IMG/VR virus record: IMGVR_UViG_3300043811_000163
Coordinates: 88,534-113,473 of that record
Source: a virus
DNA length: 24,940 nucleotides
Reading direction: 5' to 3' (one strand)
Positions 1,554 through 24,027 of this stretch are shown in pieces. How positions within the stretch are numbered: position 1 is the stretch's first letter; every line of letters begins with the position of its first letter. The notes under the pieces were generated by a model. That model did not search any database. It worked only from the letters and a program-made list of their open reading frames with translations, and was not told the origin of the DNA. Position numbers and translations under genes: made by a program.

Positions 1554-1719
1554 AATGACAAGGCAGGCCCGGAAAGACTCGCACAGGATCGGCGGGGATT
1601 GCATAGGATTGTCACGGCAGGCAAGGACCGGAAGTTTACGGAATCCAGCGACACGGAGTCGATAGCATCGGCTGCGGCAGGTGCGGAGACAGAGATCGGG
1701 CGTACGGAGTGATCCGGCC
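1554..1719 (+). repeat. orphan pentamer-phased GGCAGG array (3 units)
   Basis: GGCAGG at 1562, 1616, 1676; first unit is GGCA + 10 pentamers all starting with G; AATGACAAGGCAGGC (1554-1568) is identical to 6421-6435 and 6834-6848. Confidence 0.8.
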
Positions 1720-5120: not shown

Positions 5121-5272
5121 GAAGCCTTCGGGTCTGGCTCAAGCTGGCGTGGTGGTCGCTATTTCCTCCGAGACATCACTGCAAATTGTGCGCGAACTGT
5201 GGTCGATTGCGATCCCCGCATCCGGCCGTACATTGCGCGAACTGCTCGCGTCAATTCTGGGGCTGGCCGTGA
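5117..5272 (+). CDS. small Zn-ribbon protein
   Basis: GTGA overlaps at both ends; two CANC motifs. Confidence 0.45.
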   Translation: MRSLRVWLKLAWWSLFPPRHHCKLCANCGRLRSPHPAVHCANCSRQFWGWP

Positions 5273-5454
5273 GCAAGCGTATCCGGCCCGTCCGGTTCGA
5301 GCTCGTACTGACGCGAGACGAACGCAAGCAGCTCGACCTCGTGGCCGACGATCTCGACATGAGCGCGTCGGACGTGCTCCGACGAGCCTTCAAGGAATTT
5401 CAGTTGCGGTACAAGACAACGAAACAACAGGAGACAGATCATGCCGTTCGGTAA
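5269..5454 (+). CDS. ribbon-helix-helix (CopG-like) DNA-binding protein
   Basis: VRFELVLTRDERKQLDLVADDLDMSASDVLRRAF fits the RHH beta-helix-helix pattern; GTG overlaps the upstream stop. Confidence 0.7.
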   Translation: MSKRIRPVRFELVLTRDERKQLDLVADDLDMSASDVLRRAFKEFQLRYKTTKQQETDHAVR

Positions 5455-6286
5455 GAAGAAGACAGAAGGAAACATCAACTACAACCAGTCGAACATCTCG
5501 ACGCTCGCGGCGGACGCGCTCAAGAATCGGCGCAATGTGAGGGTGAGGCTCGCTGTGAGGCTCACCTTTACCACACCGATCCTGATGCAACGGTGGACCA
5601 CAAAAGCGATCCGGCAAATGCTCGGAAACATGGTAGGAATGCCTCAGCCGAGGATGAGCAAGGATCTCACTGCTGACTTTGAGGACAGCTGGTATCGAAA
5701 CCTCCACGGGGAGCCTGTGATCCCCTGCAGGATCATCAAGGCGGCCATTGTGAGCGCCGGTGGTCCCGTGGTCGGTGGGGTCGTGAGCAAGGCCGATCTG
5801 AAGCGCACGCTTCGAGTGGTCGGGTTCACTGCACCGTTGAAGTTCAAGGGCGAGAAGGAGATGTCGATCAAGATCGTGCGCAACGACAACGGCAAGCCCG
5901 ACGTGCGATCTCGGGCTCAGTTTCCGATCGGGACCACCTGTGAGGTGGTACTCGAATTCGGATTCCCGTTGACGCCCGATGGCATCGTCGCGGCGCTTGA
6001 GGGCGCAGGTACAGCAGTCGGGATCGGAGAGTTCCGACCAGAGAGCGGCGGAGAGCTTGGTTGCTTCACGGTCGAGATTCTTCCGAGCGACGCGAAAACG
6101 ATCGATCGCATTCTCCGAGCGACTTCGGTACTCGAAGACGAATTTCGAATTCCGACTGAAATGCTCAAGGCATTTGCGCAGCTGCCGGACTCGACGCTGC
6201 CGGATCCGGCAAAGAAGGTCCGATCGGCGGTGCGCCGGCAAGCCACGGAGCGCGCGCGCGCGAACGGTGCGCACGACGTCTCGTAG
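5441..6286 (+). CDS. stand-alone Cas7/RAMP-like RNA-binding protein (Vipr-like)
   Basis: N-terminal strand VRLTFTTPILMQ, IPxxxIKAAI motif, RxRAQF, and C-terminal Gly-rich loop AGTAVGIGEFRPESGGELGCFTV typical of RAMP folds; AGGAG RBS; no other cas genes in the window. Confidence 0.75.
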   Translation: MPFGKKKTEGNINYNQSNISTLAADALKNRRNVRVRLAVRLTFTTPILMQRWTTKAIRQMLGNMVGMPQPRMSKDLTADFEDSWYRNLHGEPVIPCRIIKAAIVSAGGPVVGGVVSKADLKRTLRVVGFTAPLKFKGEKEMSIKIVRNDNGKPDVRSRAQFPIGTTCEVVLEFGFPLTPDGIVAALEGAGTAVGIGEFRPESGGELGCFTVEILPSDAKTIDRILRATSVLEDEFRIPTEMLKAFAQLPDSTLPDPAKKVRSAVRRQATERARANGAHDVS

Positions 6287-6337
6287 AATGGAAGACCGCA
6301 GCGCGTTTTCTCATCCGGCGCGCTGCGGTCTCGGCAT

Positions 6338-7266
6338 GGCAGGCACGGACAGCAGTTCCGGAGCGGATAGGCAGGTGAGCAGGGGAACGGTAACGATAGA
6401 CTTCCATCGTACCGGAGCACAATGACAAGGCAGGCACGGACAGGCATGGCTCCCAAGAGCTCGGACCGCATCGACAAGGCAGGCACGGCACATAGAGTAC
6501 CGGCGTGTACCGGCCCGCAAGATACCGGCACAGGCACGGAGCGTCACGGACGGACAAGGCAGGCGTGGATGGGACACGCGGGGCGAGAGTGGAGAGTAGT
6601 GGATTGCCGAGACTTGGCAGGCGGGGAATGGAAGTGAAAGACGCATCCCGCAGCGTCAAGGTGCCATCGGAGCGGATCTTTATGGCAGGCATCGATTGGC
6701 GAGGAAATTCGAGGCGTGTCCGCGCACGACACGATTCGACACGGCAGGCCCGGAAGCACTGAGCGTGGAATGGATGGGATCGGATGGACGAGGCAGGCTG
6801 TACTAGGTCCGGTGTCCAGCGGATCGCAATCGGAATGACAAGGCAGGCAACGCATGGAAGTCATGGGACCGGAAGTGCCTCGGATGGGAGCGGAGCAGGA
6901 GTCGGCAAGGACAGACACGGCAGGCAGAGCACGGCGATAATGGGCCCGACATGGATTGGATGGGGCGGAATCGAGTCCAAAGACACGGCAGGCGCGGATG
7001 GCAGCGCGGGGAACGGACCGTAATCCAATTGACCGACTGGGAACGACACGGCAGGCAAGGAACGTATTGCAGAGCTATGCAACGTAACGGAATGGCAGGC
7101 TACGCGTGGTGCGCAGTGAGTCGGACAGTACGGACATGGCAGGCGTCGATAGTCACGCACCGGACTCGAATGTCCCGAACCGGACCGCATCGACAAGGCA
7201 AGGCAGGCACGGGCAGATGTGGCCGAGTCGGCAGGCTCGGCTACACTGCGATTTGCGAAAGGCAGG
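6338..7266 (+). repeat. non-coding pentamer-phased array, candidate guide RNA array
   Basis: 18 GGCAGG at 6338, 6370, 6429, 6478, 6558, 6616, 6684, 6743, 6792, 6842, 6919, 6987, 7050, 7094, 7138, 7202, 7230, 7261; many spacings are 4+5n (44, 44, 49, 49, 59, 59, 64); pentamers mostly start with G. Confidence 0.88.
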
Positions 7267-7276
7267 GAAGGAAACC

Positions 7277-7909
7277 ATGGCAGCGAAAGTGATTCGAACG
7301 AAGACGGCCGCGAAGACGCTGAAAAAGACCACGTCGCCTCCGAGACTTGCGCCGAGATTTGCGGTGCCGTGGCTGCCCGAATCGCAGGGCCAAACAGTCG
7401 GCGAAGAACTGCTCAAAATAGCGGCCGAGCACAAGATCAACAACATCCGAAGCCTCGACGCAAAGCTCGTCTGGGCGATCTTGAAAGACGACCCGAACCA
7501 TCCGCTCTGGAGCAGCGGAGGCTACGAGCGCGATGTGCGCAAGGCCGCGACAAGGTATTGGGTCGATCACACGAAAAAGCTCATTGCGAGCGTGCGGATC
7601 ATTACCATGACGCTGCCGAAGCGCGTGATGCATGAGCCGCTCTTTTTGAACTGCGACGCGCCGGTCAAGAAGGAAGGCAGCGTTGCGAAGAAGAGAGTGC
7701 ACGTCCTTCGTGCAGATGTGTTAGAACAAGATCCGCTTTTCATGTCAGCAATCGGTTCGAAAATCAGACGTTTGCTCGGCGTCATCCACGAACTCGAGCA
7801 CCTCAGTGCCGAGCGAGCGATCCCGGGCTACATGCAAGAGCTCATCGATGCTGTGAGCGAAGCGACGAAGCGGTACATGGGAACCGGCGTCGACGTGGCT
7901 GCGCAGTGA
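7277..7909 (+). CDS. hypothetical protein, probable accessory gene of the RAMP/array locus
   Basis: ATG 7277 with GAAGGA RBS directly after the array; pattern VGEEL...DPNHPLW...YERD..KAATRYW..LIASV recalled from phage proteins near RAMP-like genes (unverified). Confidence 0.7.
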   Translation: MAAKVIRTKTAAKTLKKTTSPPRLAPRFAVPWLPESQGQTVGEELLKIAAEHKINNIRSLDAKLVWAILKDDPNHPLWSSGGYERDVRKAATRYWVDHTKKLIASVRIITMTLPKRVMHEPLFLNCDAPVKKEGSVAKKRVHVLRADVLEQDPLFMSAIGSKIRRLLGVIHELEHLSAERAIPGYMQELIDAVSEATKRYMGTGVDVAAQ

Positions 7910-9397: not shown

Positions 9398-10896
9398 GCA
9401 CGGGCGGCTTTCTCGGCATGCGATTCGATTCGGCCACGCAGATGCAGATGGACCCGAAAGTCGAGGTCGAATTTCTGCGCGCGAGGCTCAAGGAAATGGA
9501 AGCCGTCTTCCAAATGGCCCAACAGAAGCCGCAGCGCCGCGCGATCGTGCTCGAGGTGAGGCAAGACAAGACGACGATCGCGATCGGTCCGCACGTCGAA
9601 GAGGTGGCCACACCGACTCGGATCCCGGATCTCGGATGCGGCGACATCGTGCACATTCTGCCCGACAGCGAAGGCATTCTCGATCGCATCGAGGACTCGC
9701 CGTTGACGGGGCCCATCATGCGTGTGGTACGAAGGATCGACGATCGCTACATCGAGGCCGAGGGACGAAGCGGCGTTCGCGTGATTTCGCTCGCCGGCAA
9801 GCACGACCCGCAAGAAGGGGATCGCGTCATCCTCGATGGGGCCGCGCAGATCTGCGTTCGCATCGTGGACCGCGCCCACGCCGTCAAGGTCGATGCGCGA
9901 GCCATCGAGACCGGAGTGACCTGGGACGACATCGGGGGCCAGGACGAGGCCAAGAAAGCGCTGCGCGAGGCCATCGAGGGCGTCGTGCTCGATGCGGACA
10001 GGTACAAGCGGTACCGCAAGCGCATGCCGAAGGGCGCGCTCTTGGTGGGACCGCCAGGCTGCGGCAAATCGCTTTTCGCGAAGGCAGCAGCGACCGCGAT
10101 TGCGGAGCTGCACGGCAAAGCCTCGGCCGCGACCGGGTTCCAGCACGTCAAGGGCCCCGAGATCCTGCAGAAGTTCGTCGGGGAATCCGAGCAGGCCGTG
10201 CGCGATCTCTTCGAGACGGCAAGAGAGCACAAGAAGCGTCACGGCTATCCGAGCATCATCTGCCTGGACGAAGCCGACGCGCTGCTTGCCGCCAGGGGTC
10301 GCGCGAGGATGGAAGGCATGGAGAAAACGATCGTGCCGGCTTTCCTGACCGAGATGGACGGGATTGAGGACTCGGGCGCGTTCGTTCTTTTGCTCACGAA
10401 TCGGCCGGACATTCTGGACTCGGCTGTGGTCCGCGAAAAGCGATGCGATCTCAAGATCCACGTGGGACGGCCGGACAAGAAACAGGCCGCGGAGATCTTG
10501 CGGCTGCATCTGAAAGACGTGCCGATCTCGATCGACCTCGACGATGAAGACGACCGGCTCGCGGTGGGCGCGGGCGTAGCGTCCGACGAGCTCTTCTCTC
10601 CGCGTCACGGGATCTACGTCGTGCGCACCCGCAGCGCGCGCGCCGACAAGCGACTGAACCTCTCGCATTTCGTCTCGGGGGCCATGTGCGAAGGCTTGGT
10701 CGAGAAGGCGAAAGAGCAGGCCATCCGACGAGAACGCGAGACCGGCAAGGAATCGGGCATCACGTCGGACGATCTGGCGAAAGCCGCGGACCTTCTCTGC
10801 AATGAGCACCGCATCACGGATCATCCAATGGAGCTCGACGAGATCGCGCGCGAGTTCAAGGAAGACCTCAAATCGATCGACCGGGTGAAGCCGTGA
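9394..10896 (+). CDS. ARC/Mpa-like AAA+ ATPase
   Basis: coiled coil and OB-like N-region; VTWDDIGG, GPPGCGKS, KGPEILQKFVGESE, CLDEAD, TIVPAFLTEMDG, TNRPDILD and SGAM motifs parallel proteasomal ARC/Mpa. Confidence 0.85.
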   Translation: MSTGGFLGMRFDSATQMQMDPKVEVEFLRARLKEMEAVFQMAQQKPQRRAIVLEVRQDKTTIAIGPHVEEVATPTRIPDLGCGDIVHILPDSEGILDRIEDSPLTGPIMRVVRRIDDRYIEAEGRSGVRVISLAGKHDPQEGDRVILDGAAQICVRIVDRAHAVKVDARAIETGVTWDDIGGQDEAKKALREAIEGVVLDADRYKRYRKRMPKGALLVGPPGCGKSLFAKAAATAIAELHGKASAATGFQHVKGPEILQKFVGESEQAVRDLFETAREHKKRHGYPSIICLDEADALLAARGRARMEGMEKTIVPAFLTEMDGIEDSGAFVLLLTNRPDILDSAVVREKRCDLKIHVGRPDKKQAAEILRLHLKDVPISIDLDDEDDRLAVGAGVASDELFSPRHGIYVVRTRSARADKRLNLSHFVSGAMCEGLVEKAKEQAIRRERETGKESGITSDDLAKAADLLCNEHRITDHPMELDEIAREFKEDLKSIDRVKP

Positions 10897-11117
10897 AGTA
10901 TACGCTGGGCCCGGACGAGATCTCGGCGGCACTCGCGAGCTACGTCATGAACAAGCCGCATCCGACGCCGACTCCGGACGGCACCGAGCGTCGACTCGAG
11001 GTGACGACGGAATGGACTATCATCACATCGGGCGGCAACGTCTGCGAAATCAAGTCGGTGTCGGTCGAGATCCAAGAGAAGCCGCCATGTGCATCTTCGA
11101 AGACATCGAGAAAGTGA
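10893..11117 (+). CDS. hypothetical protein
   Basis: GTGA overlap with the ATPase stop. Confidence 0.55.
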   Translation: MKYTLGPDEISAALASYVMNKPHPTPTPDGTERRLEVTTEWTIITSGGNVCEIKSVSVEIQEKPPCASSKTSRK

Positions 11118-12617: not shown

Positions 12618-12695
12618 GGGGCTCGAAAGAGCATGGTGCTCAAGCGGACTGTAACCCCGCGGCTTCGGCGAGCTGTTCGATTCAGCCGGGCCCCA
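12618..12695 (+). tRNA. tRNA-Tyr(GTA)
   Basis: GGGGCTC/GGGCCCC acceptor, loop CTGTAAC, TTCGATT T-loop. Confidence 0.7.
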
Positions 12696-12763
12696 CTGGA
12701 GAGAGACGATGGAACGCAGACTCAAACGCAAGCGCGCGCCGAGCAAGCCGGCGCAGAAATCGA

Positions 12764-12836
12764 GGGCCCGAAGCTCAATGGGATGAGCAGCGGATTTTTA
12801 TCCCGCGCGACGTCGGTTCGAATCCGACCGGGCTCA
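12764..12836 (+). tRNA. tRNA-Lys(TTT)
   Basis: GGGCCCG/CGGGCTC, loop TTTTTAT, GGTTCGAATCC. Confidence 0.8.
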
Positions 12837-12843
12837 CGACTAC

Positions 12844-12914
12844 GAATCCGTAGTTCAACGGCAGAACGGTCGGCCCTTACCCGATTCATGAGCGTTCGAT
12901 TCGCTCCGGATTCA
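12844..12914 (+). tRNA. tRNA-Lys(CTT)
   Basis: GAATCCG/CGGATTC, loop CCCTTAC. Confidence 0.8.
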
Positions 12915-12915
12915 C

Positions 12916-12986
12916 TGGCGCTTCGTCCAACGGTAGGACAGCGGTTTCTGACACCGTCAATCAGCGTTCGATTCGCTGAGCGCCAA
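12916..12986 (+). tRNA. tRNA-Gln(CTG)
   Basis: TGGCGCT/AGCGCCA, loop TTCTGAC. Confidence 0.85.
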
Positions 12987-13123
12987 CCGCGGCATCCGTT
13001 TCGGTGCCACGATCCTTGACAACCCCGAGCGATGCACTCGGACCGAACGAGCATGACGGCGACCCGAACGGGCGCGGCGGTCTCCTCGTGTGACGCGGCG
13101 CGGGGTAGTTGACCGCGTCTTTT

Positions 13124-13194
13124 TCCGGTGGCGCCTAATGGTGGGCACTCGGTTGTTGCCCGAGACTAAAGGAGTTCGATTCTCTTCGCCGGAG
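13124..13194 (+). tRNA. tRNA-Asn(GTT)
   Basis: TCCGGTG/CGCCGGA-G, loop TTGTTGC. Confidence 0.8.
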
Positions 13195-13210
13195 CGGATA
13201 CAATGTAGCG

Positions 13211-13603
13211 ATGAAGAACGGTCCGTACGAGCTAGTGAAAGCGCCTGCGGAATACCCTGGCTTCAAGTACCGCGGCAGGTACGTGTACGAGCATCATCTC
13301 GTATGGTGGCAGAACACGGGCGAGGTAGTTCCGACCGACGCAGACTACCTGATCCACCACAAGAATCACGATCGAAGGGACAACGCGTTCTCGAATCTCG
13401 AGAAAAAGCAACGCGGTGCTCATACGCGAGAACACATTCTTGAATCGAGAGCGGCCAAGACAGTGGTCGTTCAGTGTGGCTGGTGCAGCCGCGACGTCGT
13501 GAAGTTTGAGCGTGTCGTGCGTCGCCAACAGAAACGAGGTCAGAGAGTATTTTTCTGTTGCGCTTCACACGGGACCAAGTATCAGTTCAACGGTCCGAGA
13601 TAA
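13211..13603 (+). CDS. HNH homing-type endonuclease
   Basis: YVYEHHLVW...IHHKNHDRRDNAFSNLE; C-terminal CGWC...FCC. Confidence 0.85.
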   Translation: MKNGPYELVKAPAEYPGFKYRGRYVYEHHLVWWQNTGEVVPTDADYLIHHKNHDRRDNAFSNLEKKQRGAHTREHILESRAAKTVVVQCGWCSRDVVKFERVVRRQQKRGQRVFFCCASHGTKYQFNGPR

Positions 13604-13672
13604 GCTGGATCGCGTCCGGGACCAACGCTGTTTCGTACTCAGCGCAGGGGAGTCCGACTCTCCCATCCAGCT
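13604..13672 (+). tRNA. tRNA-Thr(CGT)-like, degenerate
   Basis: GCTGGAT/ATCCAGC acceptor, loop TTCGTAC, weak D arm, TCCGACT T-loop. Confidence 0.55.
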
Positions 13673-13717
13673 CTGACCCATGCCCGCCCACGTGGCGAGC
13701 CGAAAAGGAGAACGAAA

Positions 13718-15361
13718 ATGCGATACGCACAGCATTTCAACCCGTACTCGACGCCGCAGAGTGAATCGGCGAAGCCGGGTCAAGTCGAAAACTCTGCCGG
13801 CGGCTACGTGTTCGCGGTCGACAAGTGGACGCAGCTCGATCGGTTTCTCATCCTCGGATGCGAGGGCAACACGTACTACGCGAGCGAGTACGAGATGACG
13901 CGCGACAACGCGAAGAACGTGCTCGCGTGCATCGACGAAGACGGAGCTCGCGCGGTGGCTCGCATCGTCGAAATCAGCCACGCGGGACGAGCCCCGAAGA
14001 ACGATGCTGCAGTATTTGCACTGGCGCTCGCTGCATCCGCAGAGAAGCCGGAGACGCGGGCCGCTGCGCTCGCGGCCCTGCCGAAGGTCTGCAGGATCGG
14101 CACGCATCTCTTTCAGTTCGTCGATGCGGTGCAAGGCTTCCGCGGATGGGGGCCCGGTCTCTGCAAAGCGATCGGCAAGTGGTACACGGATCGATCGCCG
14201 GCCTCGCTCGCGAACCAAGTGCTCAAGTACCAATCGCGCGAGAAGTGGTCGCACAAGGACGTGCTTCGACTCTCGCACCCGTCGGTCTCGAGTCTGGAGC
14301 ACGCGGCCATCTTCGAATGGGTTCGGGCAGGCATGTCGGGCTTCGAGGCGCGCGAGGTCGCTCGAAAGAGCGCTGGACGCGTGGACAAGTACGAGCCGGC
14401 GAATCGGGAGGCGCTTCCGAAGCTGCTCTCGGCATACGAAGAGATGAAGGCGGCGAAGTTCACCAAGGACGTCGTCAAGCTGATCGTCGATCACGGCTTC
14501 ACGCGCGAGATGGTGCCGACCCAGCACTTGAATTCGCCGGAAGTCTGGGAAGCGATGCTCATCGACATGCCGATGACGGCGATGATCCGCAATCTCGGCA
14601 AGATGAGCTCGATCGGAGTCATCAAGCCGCTGTCGAATGCGGCCATGAAGGTGGCGGCGTCCCTCGGAGATCGAGACGCACTGAAGAAGGCGCGCGTTCA
14701 CCCGATCGCGCTGCTCTCGGCGCTCAAGGTCTACGAGCAGGGTCACGGTGAAAAAGGCAAGCTCTCGTGGACGGCCGAACGGAGCGTCGTCGATGCGCTC
14801 AACGAAGCCTTCTATCTCGCCTTCGACCACCTCGAACCGACGGGCAAAAACTGGCTCATCGCGGTCGACATCTCCGGCTCGATGGCCGCGGGAAACATCG
14901 CGGGCATGCCGGGGCTCACTCCGCGTGAGGCCGCAGCGGCCATGGCGATGGTCACGGCGCGAACCGAGAAGAACTGGCACGCGATCGGCTTCACGCAGCG
15001 GGTCGTGCCGATCACGATCTCGCCGAAGCAGCGTCTCGACGACGTCGTGCGAGCCATCAGCCAGAACGTCGGAGAGCAGACCGACGCGGCGCAGCCGATG
15101 CTGTATGCGGCGCGCGAGAAGCTGGGCGTAGACGCATTCGCGCTCTACACCGACAACGAGACCTGGGCCGGCGCGATTCATCCGTTTCAGGCTCTTCAGC
15201 AGTACCGGCAGAAGCTGGGTCGCCACCAGTCCAAGTGCATGGCGGTCGCCATGACCGCGACGCGATTCAGTATCGCGGATCCAAGCGATGCGGGGATGCT
15301 CGACGTCGTAGGTTTTGACGCGGCGACGCCTCAAATCATGGCCGACTTCGCGAGGGCTTGA
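13718..15361 (+). CDS. rsr: Ro60/TROVE-domain RNA-binding protein
   Basis: QVENSAGGYVF, LDRFLILG, KYQSREKWSHKDVLRLSHP, MPMTAMIRNLGKM, vWA MIDAS DISGSM, TDNET, LDVVGFD; AAGGAG RBS. Confidence 0.95.
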   Translation: MRYAQHFNPYSTPQSESAKPGQVENSAGGYVFAVDKWTQLDRFLILGCEGNTYYASEYEMTRDNAKNVLACIDEDGARAVARIVEISHAGRAPKNDAAVFALALAASAEKPETRAAALAALPKVCRIGTHLFQFVDAVQGFRGWGPGLCKAIGKWYTDRSPASLANQVLKYQSREKWSHKDVLRLSHPSVSSLEHAAIFEWVRAGMSGFEAREVARKSAGRVDKYEPANREALPKLLSAYEEMKAAKFTKDVVKLIVDHGFTREMVPTQHLNSPEVWEAMLIDMPMTAMIRNLGKMSSIGVIKPLSNAAMKVAASLGDRDALKKARVHPIALLSALKVYEQGHGEKGKLSWTAERSVVDALNEAFYLAFDHLEPTGKNWLIAVDISGSMAAGNIAGMPGLTPREAAAAMAMVTARTEKNWHAIGFTQRVVPITISPKQRLDDVVRAISQNVGEQTDAAQPMLYAAREKLGVDAFALYTDNETWAGAIHPFQALQQYRQKLGRHQSKCMAVAMTATRFSIADPSDAGMLDVVGFDAATPQIMADFARA

Positions 15362-15396
15362 CCCGCGCGAGTCGATATGCGATAGAGAGTGTCGGA

Positions 15397-15455
15397 CGCC
15401 AGCCGATTGGCGAGGGTTACCTTGTACGTGCCCCTCGACACACACCATGCCGGCG
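15397..15455 (+). ncRNA. Y-RNA-like element A
   Basis: GCCGATTGG-CGAGGG-TTAC...CCCTCG-N7-CCATG, closing stem CGCCAGC/GCCGGCG; directly after Ro60. Confidence 0.55.
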
Positions 15456-15457
15456 TT

Positions 15458-15526
15458 TGAACCGAATGGAACAGCGTTACCCCCATTTAGGAATCCACGC
15501 TGATCCGATACCATGTCCGTGTTTCA
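15458..15526 (+). ncRNA. Y-RNA-like element B
   Basis: ACCGAATGG-AA-CAGCG-TTAC...CGCTG-N8-CCATG; same layout as A with a different but paired stem. Confidence 0.55.
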
Positions 15527-15529
15527 TTT

Positions 15530-15664
15530 GCCGTCCGTAGCTCAGTTGGTAGAGCGGCAGAGGCGAAAGCCTTTCGTTCTTCAATCCCATGCTCGCGCAA
15601 GCGAGCCGCATGCGGAACGTTACCATGGATCTGTAGGTCGGTGGTTCGAATCCACCCGGCGGCA
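15530..15664 (+). ncRNA. tRNA-like RNA whose anticodon arm is replaced by a Y-RNA-like domain
   Basis: canonical D arm TAGCTCAGTTGGTAGAGC, T arm GGTGGTTCGAATCCACC, acceptor GCCG(T)CCG/CGGCGGC; insert carries CGTTC-N7-CCATG then GCCGCATGC-GGAACG-TTAC. Confidence 0.7.
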
Positions 15665-15669
15665 CTCTT

Positions 15670-15745
15670 GTCCCATTCGTCTAGTGGTCCAGGACCCGAG
15701 CCTCTCGAGCTCGCGACAAGCGTTCGATTCGCTTATGGGACGCCA
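15670..15745 (+). tRNA. tRNA-Glu(CTC)
   Basis: GTCCCAT/ATGGGAC-G-CCA, loop CTCTCGA. Confidence 0.88.
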
Positions 15746-15746
15746 C

Positions 15747-15816
15747 GGCCCGTAACTGATGGTTTGGTGGCCTGCCCTTCAAGCAGGCAGCGGGAGTTCG
15801 ATTCTCCCACGGGTCA
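15747..15816 (+). tRNA. tRNA-Glu(TTC)
   Basis: GGCCCGT/ACGGGTC, loop CCTTCAA, degenerate D arm. Confidence 0.7.
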
Positions 15817-15956
15817 CCCCGCGATTGCTGGTGCCGGGATGTGAAGGTTGCGATGAGGAAGCCCGAGTTTTCTGATCCACGCGTGCACGGCGGATCGGTG
15901 CGGGAAGAGTCGTCGAGGACGCGCATCTCTCCGGTTCGATTCCGCGACGGGATTCC

Positions 15957-16032
15957 GCTGAGCGAGCAAGTCTGGTGATTGCGCCGGTCTGAAAAGCCGG
16001 ACAACTCCGTTCGATTCGGAGGCTCAGCACCA
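15957..16032 (+). tRNA. tRNA-Phe(GAA)
   Basis: GCTGAGC/GCTCAGC-A-CCA, loop CTGAAAA. Confidence 0.85.
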
Positions 16033-16101
16033 GGGTGTAGCGTAAAGGCTGCGCGCTCCGTTCGGGCCGGAGAGGAGGCGGATCGTTCCCGCCCACCCTG
16101 A
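16031..16101 (+). tRNA. tRNA-Pro(CGG)
   Basis: CAGGGTG/CACCCTG-A, loop TTCGGGC; overlaps the CCA of tRNA-Phe by 2 nt. Confidence 0.75.
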
Positions 16102-16106
16102 CTCAT

Positions 16107-16179
16107 GGTGTCCATGGTGTAGCGGTTGCACGCGTGATTGTGGCTCACGAAGAGACGAGTTCAACTCTCGCTGGACACC
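16107..16179 (+). tRNA. tRNA-His(GTG)
   Basis: G-1 plus GTGTCCA/TGGACAC-C73, loop TTGTGGC. Confidence 0.85.
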
Positions 16180-16184
16180 CAAAT

Positions 16185-16256
16185 CCCCTCGGCTCGCCGG
16201 ATGCGAGCGGCGCTTTCCTACAGCGCGCGGGCCGTGTTCGACTCACGGCGAGGGGA
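16185..16256 (+). tRNA. tRNA-Arg(CCT)
   Basis: CCCCTCG/CGAGGGG, loop TTCCTAC. Confidence 0.75.
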
Positions 16257-16262
16257 CGAATG

Positions 16263-16337
16263 GGCTCGTGACGCGATCAGCATCGCGACTGCACTGTCGA
16301 TGCAGCGAAATGGGGGCAGCACCCATACGAGCCGCCA
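16263..16337 (+). tRNA. tRNA-Asp(GTC)
   Basis: GGCTCGT/ACGAGCC-G-CCA, loop CTGTCGA, atypical T-loop GGCAGCA. Confidence 0.7.
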
Positions 16338-16338
16338 C

Positions 16339-16407
16339 GGGTTTCAGGTCATGGTGACCAATCGGATTCCAACACCGAAGGACAGCGTTCGATTCGCTGG
16401 AGACCCG
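16339..16407 (+). tRNA. tRNA-Trp(CCA)
   Basis: GGGTTTC/GAGACCC-G, loop TTCCAAC. Confidence 0.7.
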
Positions 16408-16411
16408 CTAC

Positions 16412-16481
16412 GGGGGTGTGCGACGGGCTCGCGGCCGATCCTTGCAAGATCGTGCATCTGGTTTCGATACCAGCACCTCCA
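16412..16481 (+). tRNA. tRNA-Ala(TGC)
   Basis: GGGGGTG/CACCTCC-A with the G3:U70 Ala identity pair, loop CTTGCAA. Confidence 0.8.
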
Positions 16482-16485
16482 CTTT

Positions 16486-16553
16486 GCCCATGTGCCATGG
16501 TGGCGGCCGTCCTCGGTAAGGACGTCTCGCGAGTTCGATCCTCGACGTGGGCT
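16486..16553 (+). tRNA. tRNA-Thr(GGT)
   Basis: GCCCATG/CGTGGGC, loop TCGGTAA. Confidence 0.7.
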
Positions 16554-16559
16554 CTATTC

Positions 16560-16630
16560 GCCGGTCGAAGCATCATGGTGATGCACTCGGCTTGTATCCG
16601 AGAGGTGCGGTTCGATTCCGACGACCGGCT
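16560..16630 (+). tRNA. tRNA-Thr(TGT)
   Basis: GCCGGTC/GACCGGC, loop CTTGTAT. Confidence 0.75.
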
Positions 16631-16635
16631 CTATT

Positions 16636-16706
16636 GCGACCATCGTCCAACGGTAAGACCGCTGACTTCCATTCAGCAGATGCCGATTCGATTTCGGCTG
16701 GTCGCT
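16636..16706 (+). tRNA. tRNA-Gly(TCC)
   Basis: GCGACCA/TGGTCGC-T, loop CTTCCAT. Confidence 0.82.
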
Positions 16707-16711
16707 CAAGT

Positions 16712-16785
16712 GCGGGTGTAGCTCGAAGGTCGAGCACGTGGTTGCCATCCACGAGGCGTGGGTCCGATTCCCATCATCCGCTCCA
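16712..16785 (+). tRNA. tRNA-Gly(GCC)
   Basis: GCGGGTG/CATCCGC-T-CCA, loop TTGCCAT. Confidence 0.88.
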
Positions 16786-16786
16786 T

Positions 16787-16862
16787 GACGAGGTAGCCAA
16801 GCAAGAAAGGCAGCACGTTGCAACCGTGCCATGCGTCGGTGCAATTCCGTCCCTCGTCTCCA
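16787..16862 (+). tRNA. tRNA-Cys(GCA)
   Basis: GACGAGG/CCTCGTC-T-CCA, loop TTGCAAC. Confidence 0.85.
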
Positions 16863-16987
16863 TGATGCAGCGGCAACGTGCGTGAGTCCAAAGGATCGTG
16901 AAAATGGCCGATCACGCGCACGCCAAGCGTTTGCATCGAGTCGAAAGACTCCCGCCCGCCTCGGGGCGCGGTGACTGCCGAGGCATT

Positions 16988-17058
16988 GCTTCCGTCTCGG
17001 CGGACCCGAGCTGTCGGTTTCTATCCGACGTGTGCAGTTTCGACTACTGCCGGAAGCA
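16988..17058 (+). tRNA. tRNA-Arg(TCT)
   Basis: GCTTCCG/CGGAAGC, loop TTTCTAT. Confidence 0.72.
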
Positions 17059-17061
17059 CTT

Positions 17062-17133
17062 CTGCTCGTCGTGGCGGATTCCACGCTCTCGAGTGCGAAT
17101 CGAGATGTCGCAGTTCAACTCTGCGCGAGCAGG
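17062..17133 (+). tRNA. tRNA-Arg(GCG)
   Basis: CTGCTCG/CGAGCAG, loop GTGCGAA. Confidence 0.7.
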
Positions 17134-17137
17134 CTAC

Positions 17138-17208
17138 GCCTTCGTCCATGCGGATCATGGCCCGACGCTTCGAACGTTGGTGACTCGGCTCGACTCCGAG
17201 CGAAGGTG
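17138..17208 (+). tRNA. tRNA-Arg(TCG)
   Basis: GCCTTCG/CGAAGGT, loop CTTCGAA. Confidence 0.7.
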
Positions 17209-17209
17209 C

Positions 17210-17280
17210 CGCGGGGCAGCCGGGGACGGCAGCTCGGTCTCATAAGCCAAGCCAGCCACGTTCGACTCGTGGGCCCGCAA
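17210..17280 (+). tRNA. tRNA-Met(CAT), initiator-like
   Basis: CGCGGG.../...CCCGCA-A with C1:A72 mismatch, loop CTCATAA. Confidence 0.65.
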
Positions 17281-17281
17281 C

Positions 17282-17350
17282 GCCGATGATCCTCGGAGGA
17301 GGCGCCGTTTCATATGCGGCAGCAAGAGCGTTCGATTCGCTCCATCGGCA
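17282..17350 (+). tRNA. tRNA-Met(CAT), elongator or Ile2
   Basis: GCCGATG/CATCGGC, loop TTCATAT. Confidence 0.7.
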
Positions 17351-17351
17351 C

Positions 17352-17419
17352 TGGAGGTTACCTGGCGGGAGCAGCTCTCCTACAAAGAGCAGCGACGCGT
17401 TCGATTCGCGTACCTCCAA
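17352..17419 (+). tRNA. tRNA-Val(TAC)
   Basis: TGGAGGT/ACCTCCA, loop CCTACAA, reduced D arm. Confidence 0.65.
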
Positions 17420-17420
17420 C

Positions 17421-17501
17421 CGGACGTCACCTAGGCCGGACGGGATCCGGCGCCCGTCTTATGAGCGGGTCGGCTTGGTGGTTCGACTCCACGACGTCCG
17501 A
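17421..17501 (+). tRNA. tRNA-Ile(TAT)-like
   Basis: CGGACGT/ACGTCCG, loop CTTATGA, extra nucleotides before the D arm. Confidence 0.6.
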
Positions 17502-17509
17502 CGAATAGA

Positions 17510-17581
17510 GCGAGACACGCCATCTGGTGAAGGCACCGGCCCGACGCGCCGGACAGGAGAGTTCGATCCTCTCGTCTCGCA
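17510..17581 (+). tRNA. tRNA-Val(GAC)
   Basis: GCGAGAC/GTCTCGC, loop CCGACGC. Confidence 0.75.
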
Positions 17582-17585
17582 CAAC

Positions 17586-17657
17586 GGGCGTAGATGGTCT
17601 GGTCGACCTTGGAACCCTGATAAGGATCCTGGCAGGATTCGATTTCCTGTACGCCCA
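17586..17657 (+). tRNA. tRNA-Ile(GAT)
   Basis: GGGCGTA/TACGCCC, loop CTGATAA. Confidence 0.75.
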
Positions 17658-17681
17658 CCCCGTGCTATAGAGAGCAGCGCT

Positions 17682-18209
17682 ATGGAGCCGCAGGTTTTGG
17701 TCTTGAACGTCTGGATGCAGCCGCACGCCATTTACACGTGGCAGGACGCGATCGTTGCGCTCTACAAGGGCAACGTCGACGTGCTCGAGGAGTACGAGGC
17801 GACCGTTTCATCCCCGTCGGTCACGCTGCAGATCCCGGCCGTCATCAAGCTGCGCAAGACGCTGTCAACGCACAAGAAGGGCCTGAAATTCAGCCGAATG
17901 AACGTGCTGACTCGCGACGGTCAACGCTGCTGCTACTGCGGTCAGCGCGGCTCTCTTCGCGATCTCAATTACGATCACGTTCTTCCGCGATCACGCGGTG
18001 GGACCACGACTTGGTTGAATATCGTGACGGCGCACCGCGGGTGCAATACACGGAAGGGCAATAAGACCCCTGCCGAAGCGGGGCTCAAGATGCACTTTCA
18101 GCCGCATGTTCCGCGGAGTCTTCCGATGGCGAGGCCGTTTCTCATCGATCTCGAGAAGGCGCCGCCGCAGTGGCTGCCGTACTTGACGCAGAGTGCGGAG
18201 ACGGCATGA
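17682..18209 (+). CDS. HNH endonuclease (McrA-like)
   Basis: VLVLN...RDGQRCCYCG...DHVLPRSRGG.TTWLNIV...CNTRKGNKTP; ATG 17682 chosen because the upstream part of the tracked ORF is tRNA. Confidence 0.88.
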   Translation: MEPQVLVLNVWMQPHAIYTWQDAIVALYKGNVDVLEEYEATVSSPSVTLQIPAVIKLRKTLSTHKKGLKFSRMNVLTRDGQRCCYCGQRGSLRDLNYDHVLPRSRGGTTTWLNIVTAHRGCNTRKGNKTPAEAGLKMHFQPHVPRSLPMARPFLIDLEKAPPQWLPYLTQSAETA

Positions 18210-18511
18210 ACTGGGCGACGCCACACATCGAATCGCTCAAGCGCGGCACGATCGTGCAGTTTCGGCCGAAGGGAGATTCGATGTCCGGCCGGATCGAGAA
18301 CGGCCAGCTCGTGACCGTGCATCCTGTGGACGATGCGACACTGATCGAAGTCGGCGACATCGTCCTCGTGACGATCGGCGGGTGGACCTACGTGCATCTC
18401 GTCAAGGCGATCAATGGGCCGCTCTATCAAATCGGCAACAATCGAGGTCGCATCAATGGGTGGGCGCATCGAGAAAAGATTCATGGCAAGGTCATCAAGG
18501 TCGAGCCGTGA
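18206..18511 (+). CDS. S24/S26-family peptidase-like protein
   Basis: GDSMSGRI motif, VGDIVL, HLVK; ATGA overlap with the HNH gene. Confidence 0.7.
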   Translation: MNWATPHIESLKRGTIVQFRPKGDSMSGRIENGQLVTVHPVDDATLIEVGDIVLVTIGGWTYVHLVKAINGPLYQIGNNRGRINGWAHREKIHGKVIKVEP

Positions 18512-18514
18512 ACT

Positions 18515-18597
18515 GGAGAGCGAACCGCGCGGGGCGCGGGCCCGGTTGGAAGCCGGTGCGGACCGCAAGGTCTGGTTTTCGAGTAACCCGCTCTCCG
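18515..18597 (+). tRNA. tRNA-Ser(GGA)
   Basis: GGAGAGC/GCTCTCC-G, loop TTGGAAG, long variable arm. Confidence 0.8.
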
Positions 18598-18598
18598 C

Positions 18599-18681
18599 GG
18601 AGAGAAAACCGATCAGGGATCGGCGCGGCTTTGAATACCGAGGGGCGAGCAATCGCTGAGGGTCGGGACCTCTTCTCTCCT
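18599..18681 (+). tRNA. tRNA-Ser(TGA)
   Basis: GGAGAGA/TCTCTCC, loop TTTGAAT, long variable arm. Confidence 0.7.
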
Positions 18682-18687
18682 CGAGAC

Positions 18688-18770
18688 GGAAGGTGAACTC
18701 GCCAGGGGCGAGAGCGGCTTCGAATACCGCATGGCGCTTCGGCGCTGAGATTCGAGTTCTCCGCCTTCCA
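18688..18770 (+). tRNA. tRNA-Ser(CGA)
   Basis: GGAAGGT/GCCTTCC, loop TTCGAAT, long variable arm. Confidence 0.75.
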
Positions 18771-18771
18771 C

Positions 18772-18857
18772 GGAAGCAAAACAGGTCAGGGTGCCTGGAC
18801 CGCCTGCTAAGCGGCTCGCACGCGTGAGCGTGTCTGTTTCGATTACAGTTGCTTCCG
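18772..18857 (+). tRNA. tRNA-Ser(GCT)
   Basis: GGAAGCA/TGCTTCC-G, loop CTGCTAA, long variable arm. Confidence 0.8.
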
Positions 18858-18869
18858 CCCAAAATCCTC

Positions 18870-18898
18870 TTGCACTCGCTCGCGCCGCGCGCTAGGCT
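18870..18898 (+). promoter_or_regulatory. sigma70-type promoter of the Leu/Gln tRNA block
   Basis: TTGCAC (18870-18875), 17 bp, TAGGCT (18893-18898). Confidence 0.65.
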
Positions 18899-18905
18899 CT
18901 CCTCC

Positions 18906-18959
18906 GTGAGCCGACTTCTGTTGCTCCAACGCCTGCAGCTTCTAGGGCCTTTAGCCTAA
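18906..18959 (+). CDS. putative leaderless Leu/Gln-rich leader peptide (17 aa)
   Basis: GTG AGC CGA CTT CTG TTG CTC CAA CGC CTG CAG CTT CTA GGG CCT TTA GCC TAA; GTG lies at the expected +1. Confidence 0.75.
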   Translation: MSRLLLLQRLQLLGPLA

Positions 18960-18973
18960 GAAGCTCGATCTGC

Positions 18974-19049
18974 GCGCTGGTAGACCAACTCGGAAGGAGT
19001 CGATCGCCTCAAGAGCGATTCAGTGCGGGTTCGAATCCCGCCCAGCGCA
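18974..19049 (+). tRNA. tRNA-Leu(CAA), short variable arm
   Basis: GCGCTGG/CCAGCGC-A, loop CTCAAGA. Confidence 0.82.
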
Positions 19050-19050
19050 C

Positions 19051-19122
19051 TCGGGGATCGATCTAACGGCAAGACATCCGGCTTTGACCCGGACAATAGC
19101 GGTTCGAATCCGCTTCCCCGAA
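19051..19122 (+). tRNA. tRNA-Gln(TTG)
   Basis: TCGGGGA/TCCCCGA, loop CTTTGAC. Confidence 0.88.
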
Positions 19123-19123
19123 C

Positions 19124-19205
19124 GCCGGCATGGTGGAAATGGCATACCCCTGCTTGAGGTGCAGGGCCCCGCAAGGGGTTGCAGGTTCGATTCCTGTTGC
19201 CGGTA
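19124..19205 (+). tRNA. tRNA-Leu(GAG)
   Basis: GCCGGCA/TGCCGGT-A, loop TTGAGGT, long variable arm. Confidence 0.85.
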
Positions 19206-19211
19206 CGAGAT

Positions 19212-19297
19212 GCTCACCTGGCGAAATAGCAACCGCGCTGCGTTCAGACCGCAGTGGGCGCAAGCCCTTGAGGGTGCAATTCCCTCGGTGAGTACCA
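19212..19297 (+). tRNA. tRNA-Leu(CAG)
   Basis: GCTCACC/GGTGAGT-A-CCA, loop TTCAGAC, long variable arm. Confidence 0.85.
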
Positions 19298-19304
19298 GTT
19301 CAAC

Positions 19305-19380
19305 GCAGCACTCGCTCAACAGGCAGAAGCCCCGCCCTAAACGCGGTCAAGTCCCGGTTCGACTCCGGGGTGCTGCACCA
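19305..19380 (+). tRNA. tRNA-Leu(TAA), short variable arm
   Basis: GCAGCAC/GTGCTGC-A-CCA, loop CCTAAAC. Confidence 0.75.
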
Positions 19381-23169: not shown

Positions 23170-24027
23170 CTACGCCGCATCCTCTTCCGCACATCGTCGA
23201 ATGTCCTCTAGCGCCCTCTCGTTGGCCGCATAGAAGTGCGGAGATCTCCCCGTACTGGCACGGTAGATCATCCGAGCTGCCACGGCAGGGTCGCCGACTT
23301 TCTTCTCAAGTGCGTAACCGGCGTCTCCGGCATGGTGGATCGCCCAACCTCCGCGACAGTGGGTTGTTTCGCACGTATGCCATGCGCCCATTTCCAGGCC
23401 GCAACCTGGAGACTGAATCGAATCGAGAATCTTGCGGTCGAGATTCTCGACGATCGGGACGTCCGGGTGCCGTTCGCGGAAGCGCCTCATGCTCTCGCTT
23501 CGCGTCAGACGTCGCCACGCCGCTCGTTCCACGGCTTTCGCTGGGTCGGTATCGACTGGCAACGTGGGCATGTCCTTGGCGTCCGCGCGGTTGGCGTCCG
23601 CGAGGTTGGCGCGCGCGAGGTCGGCGCGCGCGAGGTCGGCGCGCGCGAGGTCGGCGCCCGCGAGGTCGGCGCCCGCGAGGTAGGCGCCCGCGAGGTTGGC
23701 GTCCGCGAGGTCGGCGCGCGCGAGGTCGGCGCGCGCGAGGTTGGCGTCCGCGAGGTTGGCGTCCGCGAGGTTGGCGCCCGCGAGGTTGGCGTCCGCGAGG
23801 TCGGCGCGCGCGAGGTAGGCGCCCGCGAGGTCGGCGCCCGCGAGGTCGGCGCCCGCGAGGTCGGCGCGCGCGAGGTAGGCGCCCGCGAGGTCGGCGCCCG
23901 CGAGGTCGGCGCCCGCGAGGTCGGCGTCCACCTTGACTGCTGCGATCACTGCGTCACGCGACGACTCGGCCTCACCGGACCAGAGAACGGCGCCTGTAGA
24001 ACGATGTTTGATCTCGACTGTAGCCAT
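23170..24027 (-). CDS. pentapeptide repeat protein
   Basis: long A(D/N/Y)LA(G/R/D) run; C-terminal WHTCETTHCRGGW domain; AAGGAG RBS. Confidence 0.92.
   Translation of the reverse strand: MATVEIKHRSTGAVLWSGEAESSRDAVIAAVKVDADLAGADLAGADLAGAYLARADLAGADLAGADLAGAYLARADLADANLAGANLADANLADANLARADLARADLADANLAGAYLAGADLAGADLARADLARADLARANLADANRADAKDMPTLPVDTDPAKAVERAAWRRLTRSESMRRFRERHPDVPIVENLDRKILDSIQSPGCGLEMGAWHTCETTHCRGGWAIHHAGDAGYALEKKVGDPAVAARMIYRASTGRSPHFYAANERALEDIRRCAEEDAA

Follow-up and report, generated by a model that had tools for sequence, protein, structure and literature searches.

A staggered VIPR-type guide array in a phage genome, with guides that match defence-associated gene families

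What is the function of a non-coding tract of 5-nt repeats that lies beside a lone RAMP-like gene in a phage genome, and against what might it be directed? The tract is located in the window, the whole analysed stretch of 24,940 nucleotides (positions 88,534 to 113,473 of IMG/VR record IMGVR_UViG_3300043811_000163), which makes up the final 24.9 kb of a phage contig (113,473 bp) classed with direct terminal repeats. Window genes include a terminase, a Mu F head protein, and a Ro60/TROVE gene, and the only full match among sequencing runs was a soil metagenome, which may be its source. We propose that the tract is a guide array of a staggered-type VIPR. Several of its guides match gene families known from bacterial defence operons, and the phage probably silences these families. 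VIPR, described in 2026 (10.64898/2026.04.26.720920), is an RNA-guided DNA silencer related to CRISPR. The following features make up the locus.

5272..5454 (+): small ribbon-helix-helix-like ORF just 5' of vipr, a possible regulator (weak RHH_1/NikA matches, E about 0.08)
5441..6286 (+): vipr, encoding a lone Cas7/RAMP-like protein of 281 aa, assigned by profile, fold, and residue alignment
6293..6331 (+): strong 15-bp hairpin (inverted repeat I12) that follows the vipr stop codon and precedes the first array unit
6338..7266 (+): staggered vrRNA array, 17 units of pentamer repeats with GGCA/GG joins, a 1-nt register slip, and a G-N-(A/C) scaffold
7277..7909 (+): vap-type partner gene, 210 aa, of no named family; its homologues lie 3' of vipr in relatives

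An earlier note, made from the letters alone, had described the array as an internal 5-nt code instead of a repeat-spacer structure, and this was borne out. The units it quoted were found where it had placed them, and autocorrelation over 6338-7266 was maximal at lag 5 (0.399 versus 0.281 in shuffled sequence, z=8.3), with further peaks at lags 10 and 15 and side peaks at 5n-1. The array was the strongest period-5 tract both in the window and across the 113-kb genome. Its 18 GGCAGG anchors define 17 spacings, which had been said to cluster at 4+5n or one less; seven and five of them, respectively, did so (12/17 versus 40% expected, p=0.011), but spacings of 32, 80, 50, 77, and 31 belonged to neither class. 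The last repeat was GACAA or GACAC in 8/17 units, as the note had it, and began with GAC in 11/17. The same note had regarded positions 1-3 of the pentamer as constrained and positions 4-5 as free. This was correct for position 1 (G), position 3 (A/C), and positions 4-5, but position 2 was weakly constrained: the entropies of positions 1-5 were 0.99, 1.79, 1.36, 1.93, and 1.90 bits (61 pentamers from seven indel-free units, first pentamer excluded), versus a shuffle null of 1.91 +/- 0.04 bits that was calculated on 105 pentamers. Among 141 repeats, GGA was found 41 times, GAC 17, GGC 14, and GGT 5, so that the canonical GGY scaffold of VIPR accounted for 19/141, and G occupied position 3 in 3/141. 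Repeats of 3, 4, or 6 nt were present in 10/17 units. Array units folded singly (n=9) gave z from -1.8 to +1.3. A Logan contig crossed the array with zero differences, which indicates that the array is no assembly artefact, although this contig is probably the source of the window DNA and hence not independent.

The protein encoded upstream of the array was compared with known Vipr proteins using a profile built from the 5441-6286 ORF and 21 of its 22 close metagenomic homologues. The sole match of this profile in the PDB was 36pp_D, "SUSP1 Vipr protein" (E=4.6e-4), and the profile also found the vipr gene in the SUSP1 genome (E=4.8e-6). The ORF itself matched phrog_4652 (E=1e-10). An alignment-based AF2 model (pLDDT 80) resembled Csm3/Cas7 folds (Z 11.1, rmsd 4.3, 156 aligned residues); the single-sequence fold (pLDDT 36) was unusable. 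In the alignment, the SUSP1 RNA-contact residues R138, D177, W178, and R179 corresponded to R158, E197, F198, and R199, that is, the thumb Arg and the acid/aromatic/Arg set of the G-loop are shared with the type II VIPR of this Escherichia phage (PDB 36PP). SUSP1 H17, conserved in 96 of 105 aligned rows, corresponded to Q50. By sequence and fold, the protein is a stand-alone RAMP homologous to Vipr, with RRM core, thumb, and G-loop. Residues 1-33 and 215-281 form helical N- and C-terminal extensions that are common to the close clade and missing in SUSP1 Vipr (195 aa).

The partner gene showed 40% identity to the copy in the closest relative (L001), and 8 of 11 members were assigned to phrog_15946. 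The family comprised 10,753 representatives at E<=0.001, and searches of PDB and Atlas with the partner gene gave no clear named match. Among 116 related loci (many redundant, some short), 88 contained GGCAGG-joined pentamer arrays, 96 contained the partner gene, and 78 contained both. The region of the hairpin (6287-6341) had a folding energy of -29.5 kcal/mol (z=-3.9), and 0/200 shuffles were as stable; in L042, an inverted repeat also precedes the array, as judged by eye. In L001, vipr and the array are separated by a NikA/RelB-like ORF (10821-10964, E=7e-5), so that a small RHH/NikA-like gene adjoins vipr in both the window and L001, on opposite sides.

The locus is a minimal phage locus of vipr and an accessory gene without a cas operon. 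Among 19 scanned window proteins, no other cas gene was found, apart from one weak sub-threshold Cas5 match. The RAMP fold is shared with the Cas7/Csm3 backbones of Class 1 CRISPR systems, but here the repeat-spacer array and cas operon of CRISPR-Cas are lacking and pairing is non-contiguous. It is very improbable that the array is a non-guide repeat (a minisatellite, a DNA-protein binding array, or a coding repeat) lying beside a RAMP-like gene by chance. Tandem Repeats Finder and Rfam reported nothing at the array, which agrees with such a repeat, but arrays accompany the Vipr homologues in the majority of loci counted above, no ORF in the ORF list spans the array, and protein motifs are spelled solely under the VIPR skip rule, as described below.

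The system is a VIPR of staggered layout and a divergent form of a known family; the VIPR system and its gapped code have already been published, and the 5-nt code itself is not new. Staggered vrRNA arrays with 1-nt guide overlaps are described in the legend of fig. S18 of the defining paper (10.64898/2026.04.26.720920). In common with them, the present locus has a phage-borne lone RAMP with one accessory gene, adjacent non-coding pentamer repeats with a variable NN, approximately 8-15 repeats per guide, and a 1-nt skip on the wobble base. It also has back-to-back guides with a 1-nt overlap, as indicated by the 4+5n spacing, which was seen in 7/17 spacings here and in 355/469 GGCAGG-H units of the relatives (redundant loci counted). 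It differs from them in its G-N-(A/C) scaffold with GGA rather than GGY as the commonest triplet, in irregular 4-/6-nt repeats inside matching guides, in a Vipr of 281 aa that has additional helices and replaces His17 by Gln, and in decoded motifs that belong to defence-associated bacterial genes and not to satellite or prophage genes. The guides of SUSP1, unlike those of the present array, are separate, GGY-based, and closed by a structured tail, and the SUSP1 locus examined contained no GGCAGG.

The position-3 pocket of SUSP1 Vipr reportedly excludes purines, according to the accessible part of the structural study (10.64898/2026.04.26.720927), whereas A is the commonest position-3 base here. 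In addition, perturbation of GGY abolished silencing by SUSP1, with GGA among the swaps tried, as stated in the available text of the defining paper (10.64898/2026.04.26.720920). That paper nevertheless admits NNNGG, YNNNG, and NNNNG, and a non-GGY scaffold therefore marks a variant and not an exclusion from VIPR. Non-canonical VIPR-like arrays with GAC/NN, CAC/NN, WGT/NN, and TGH/NN are mentioned in the accessible portion of another report (10.64898/2026.10.21.760802). These share with the present array a 5-nt period beside a Vipr-like fold and a non-GGY triplet; in that portion, the triplet is fixed or singly degenerate and no decoded targets are given, whereas the triplet here is loose at two positions.

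To decode the guides, each unit was read as codon positions 1-2, and candidate families were picked by eye from known motifs. Real genes obtained by family searches were then scored, each unit against shuffles of its repeat order. The 6-nt repeats were scored in both readings, as were those of the shuffles, and exclusion of two units with <6 repeats left 15 testable units in the main array. Scoring 17 units against 8 gene sets under 4 skip rules gave 544 cells, of which five reached z 8.5-12.9, all at skip 1, and the highest z at skips 0, 2, and 3 was 3.4. The idea that the variable dinucleotides jointly spell a gapped target was therefore upheld for 5/15 testable units at the level of gene families, and at skip 1 only. 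All five matches were antisense to the coding strand, with the skipped base at the wobble position. Read along successive repeats, positions 4-5 give the first two codon letters of conserved motifs on the coding strand, with the wobble base skipped.

Each decoded motif was confined to one inter-anchor unit. The dinucleotide of the last repeat did not take part in the match (0.26 versus 0.83 for inner repeats), which suggests a handle role for the last repeat. GGCAGG had been suggested to mark processing boundaries, and such a role would fit the 1-nt overlap of staggered arrays, the confinement of motifs, and the mismatch of the last repeat.

The families were chosen after decoding and by eye, and for patatin and ThiF a signal emerged only when a second, defence-type gene set was scored (first sets: patatin z 2.2, ThiF 0.9). 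Ten of the 15 main-array units were unassigned or weak. The matched genes came from Desulfobacterota-, Planctomycetota-, and Chloroflexota-centred samples and showed 77-88% identity; since these bacteria are unrelated to the host, the matches reveal the target family and not the target itself. A third-letter code, in which the scaffold base records the wobble base, was not detected in these family-level matches (0.26/0.26/0.27 observed versus 0.29/0.27/0.26 expected). Taken in bulk, NN showed an antisense-codon bias (sign-flip p=0.001), which decreased to z=1.3 when per-position base composition was kept; it stems from base composition and is weak on its own. Several candidate families found no support: terminase (z 2.3-2.5 in 30 other terminase loci), NYN (z 2.3), PemK (zero signal), general patatins (z 2.0-2.2 in 30 loci), and housekeeping ThiF (no signal in 30 loci). 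The guides with matches are listed below.

6482..6562 (+): guide, antisense to DUF6791-ThiF genes (type II Bub E2-E1) at their glycine-rich loop; spans one 6-nt repeat
6620..6688 (+): guide to the second zinc-ligand motif of Peptidase_M78 (ImmA/IrrE/CapP); z 12.1-12.8, 60 loci, 0/1000 shuffles
6688..6747 (+): weak, post hoc candidate for a second guide to the same Bub-type gene, in its DUF6791 domain; 17/22 in 2/8 loci
6846..6923 (+): guide to the HExxH motif of Peptidase_M78; z 11.1-12.5, 60 loci, 0/300 shuffles; spans three 6-nt repeats
6923..6991 (+): second guide to the HExxH motif of Peptidase_M78; z 8.4-8.5, 60 loci, 0/1000 shuffles; best 20/26
7142..7206 (+): guide to the glycine-rich motif of CBASS-lipase-like patatins; z 12.4-12.6, 21 loci, 0/1000 shuffles

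The best match of guide 6620-6688 was 23/26, in L370 (peptide IEANAFAAELLMP), and that of guide 6846-6923 was 22/28 (e.g., LRFTAAHELGHFRL). In the relatives, 3 of 331 units, all independent guides, matched the two M78 motifs at z>5 and none scored below -5 (L039 11517 and 12009; L046 11245). With three guides in the window and three in relatives directed at one family, chance seems unlikely for M78. Four top M78 matches scored best on PADLOC capP and were short stand-alone capP-like proteins, and two M78 matches had a defence gene as neighbour, for a DRT-type exonuclease or for type I RM specificity. CapP cleaves CapH and thereby induces CBASS and other defence operons upon DNA damage, according to the accessible part of the report (10.1101/2022.04.27.489752). 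For guide 7142-7206, the best match was 21/24, in L498, which is under the family cut-off, adjoins proB, and lies outside a CBASS operon; a match of 19/24 was found in L491, adjoining a CBASS cyclase.

Over the whole Bub set of eight loci, guide 6482-6562 gave a mean best of 21.9/30 versus a null of 17.7 (0/1000 shuffles; top 25/30), and the signal was repeated in the three later-fetched loci. For guide 6688-6747, 3/1000 shuffles were equally high over the eight loci and 46/1000 over the three new loci. The DUF6791-ThiF genes neighbour Multi_ubiq, DUF6527, and a capP-like gene, an arrangement that appears to fit the type II Bub layout. According to the literature on these operons, CapH and CapP are carried by 31% of Bub operons, and a block of phage has so far been demonstrated for none of them (PMC11601596).

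The GGY share of the array (0.13) was the lowest among 68 arrays with >=20 repeats, the next being 0.31 and 0.33. Together with the SUSP1 data on purine exclusion and GGY perturbation, this implies either that the array is decaying or that its Vipr reads a looser scaffold. A once-functional VIPR array in decay, with the loose scaffold and indels as neutral damage and the motif matches as relics, would account for the low GGY share and for the irregular repeats in 10/17 units, and the loss of silencing in SUSP1 upon GGY perturbation is in line with it; we nonetheless regard it as improbable. The dinucleotides matched equally after canonical and non-canonical triplets (0.83 after GGA, 0.77 after others, 0.73 after GGY), which supports a functional loose scaffold, as random decay should erode the dinucleotides too. 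In addition, all 18 junction hexamers are intact (though they were located by that very sequence), G is nearly absent from position 3, both ORFs are open, and an A-rich scaffold is also present in the nearest relative L001 and in a distant mini-array of the same phage. Further, 4- or 6-nt repeats lie inside 4/5 matching guides. A loose G-N-(A/C) scaffold is apparently acceptable to this Vipr, as are 4-/6-nt repeats now and then.

In 737 tests, no Vipr residue accounted for the A-rich position 3 (best p=0.003), and A-rich arrays did not cluster on a quick tree (134/500 shuffles as low). Loss of the His17 equivalent accompanied low G1 conservation in 3/68 loci (p=0.003), two of which are sister taxa. 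In L045, GGA-dominated arrays were observed on both strands (36 parsed units). Marine relatives (L011-L015, L100-L111) carry orthologous guides in which non-canonical triplets are retained between phages, with 5, 15, 23, 27, and 8 changes at the five positions (21 non-independent pairs).

The mini-array comprises two units.

1562..1681 (+): second array of two units, directly 5' of terL and after an unnamed ORF (818-1525), with junctions and scaffold as in the main array

Direct searches for targets in phage DNA, which the earlier note had put forward as a check, did not succeed. When 13 window segments and 250 segments of relatives were scanned locally against 2.2 Mb of phage loci, and close-clade units against 5.6 Mb, all skips stayed at shuffle level, with guides split at indels in both. 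In exact gapped-seed scans of viral_contigs, unit 7142-7206 had 6 matches, all to one phage gene (19/24), mini-array unit 1566-1620 had 16 (best 18/20), and a control unit of a marine relative had 8 (best 22/28), all at chance level; for unit 6374-6433, the best of the 120 examined out of about 160 matches was 19/22, with extensions as chance predicts. No close relatives of the phage were found in genome_contigs or cultured phages. In the phage's own genome, main-array units were at chance level, with a few short ones at >=80%. Mini-array unit 1620-1680 matched the phage's own terL at 18/22 near 2547-2579 (ADYSVAVTLGF); this site lies some 0.9 kb downstream of it, and the match is antisense and in frame. 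This unit may target the terminase of sister phages or serve self-regulation.

Published natural targets of VIPR are satellites, prophages (lysis-lysogeny regulators), other VIPRs, and host decoy repeats; the SUSP1 target is a satellite recombinase, as stated in the accessible parts of two reports (10.64898/2026.04.26.720927; 10.64898/2026.10.15.759431). A role between mobile elements, as already published for VIPR, is the main competing explanation: the M78 guides would silence ImmA-type anti-repressors of resident prophages, ICEs, or satellites and block the induction of competitors during infection, with the patatin and E1 genes as cargo of these elements. The CapP report, in the part available, describes M78 peptidases as also governing prophages and ICEs, both of which the related ImmA induces, and ImmA/ImmR as governing ICEBs1 and a Bacillus prophage (10.1101/2022.04.27.489752). 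Bub operons are frequently located on mobile elements, according to the available part of PMC11601596, and the terminase-like match of one mini-array unit points in the same direction. We consider this explanation possible but rather unlikely, as the patatin and Bub matches are to genes of the effector type rather than of mobility, the top M78 matches are short capP-like proteins that stand alone, two of them next to defence genes, and related phage DNA was matched by no unit above shuffles. Defence operons are the likelier aim.

The mechanism can be outlined by analogy with the SUSP1 work. The array would be co-transcribed with vipr and likely cut at each GGCA/GG into guides of 45-80 nt. Vipr would polymerise with one subunit per repeat, and the resulting filament would bind the gapped DNA site and stop transcription without cleavage. 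Three guides would be directed against peptidases of the CapP/ImmA type, which upon DNA damage lift the repression of defence operons and mobile elements; two others would address a CBASS-lipase-like effector and a type II Bub ligase, respectively. Because catalytic motifs are aimed at and the wobble base is ignored, a single guide could cover a whole gene family across host strains. We see about an even chance that VIPR acts here as a programmable, multiplexed anti-defence system that shuts off a CapP-type switch, a CBASS-type lipase, and a type II Bub ligase, with a Vipr that reads a near-unconstrained G-N-(A/C) scaffold and bulges out extra bases.

For a phage, silencing host immune genes with guide RNAs would be a new counter-defence route. 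Literature searches found no paper in which VIPR is directed against host defence genes, though the bioRxiv figures and tables S3/S4 may list such targets or this array type. If the proposal is true, the guide list would be a readout of host genes that act against phage and would point to a role of Bub operons in immunity. If this Vipr does accept GGA and off-register repeats, the design rules derived from the SUSP1 structure would have to be widened, and the misses by GGY-based callers would be explained.

GGCAGG-joined arrays were also observed in two cultured phages, Gordonia phage Pipp (L252 2562-2780) and Mycobacterium phage Donkeykong (L253 1450-1775), where each is annotated as a hypothetical CDS; these are ready models for staggered processing. 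Elsewhere in the window, a pentapeptide-repeat protein (23170-24027, - strand) contained a 15-nt tandem repeat (23578-23926) that is unrelated to the array. Thirty tRNA genes were predicted at 12618-19380, around the Ro60/TROVE gene (13718-15361), and a tRNA-like Rfam match of 133 nt (15531-15663) just 3' of Ro60 may correspond to a Y-RNA-like or intron-bearing RNA. The best relative of this Ro60 shares a contig with the VIPR locus L003.
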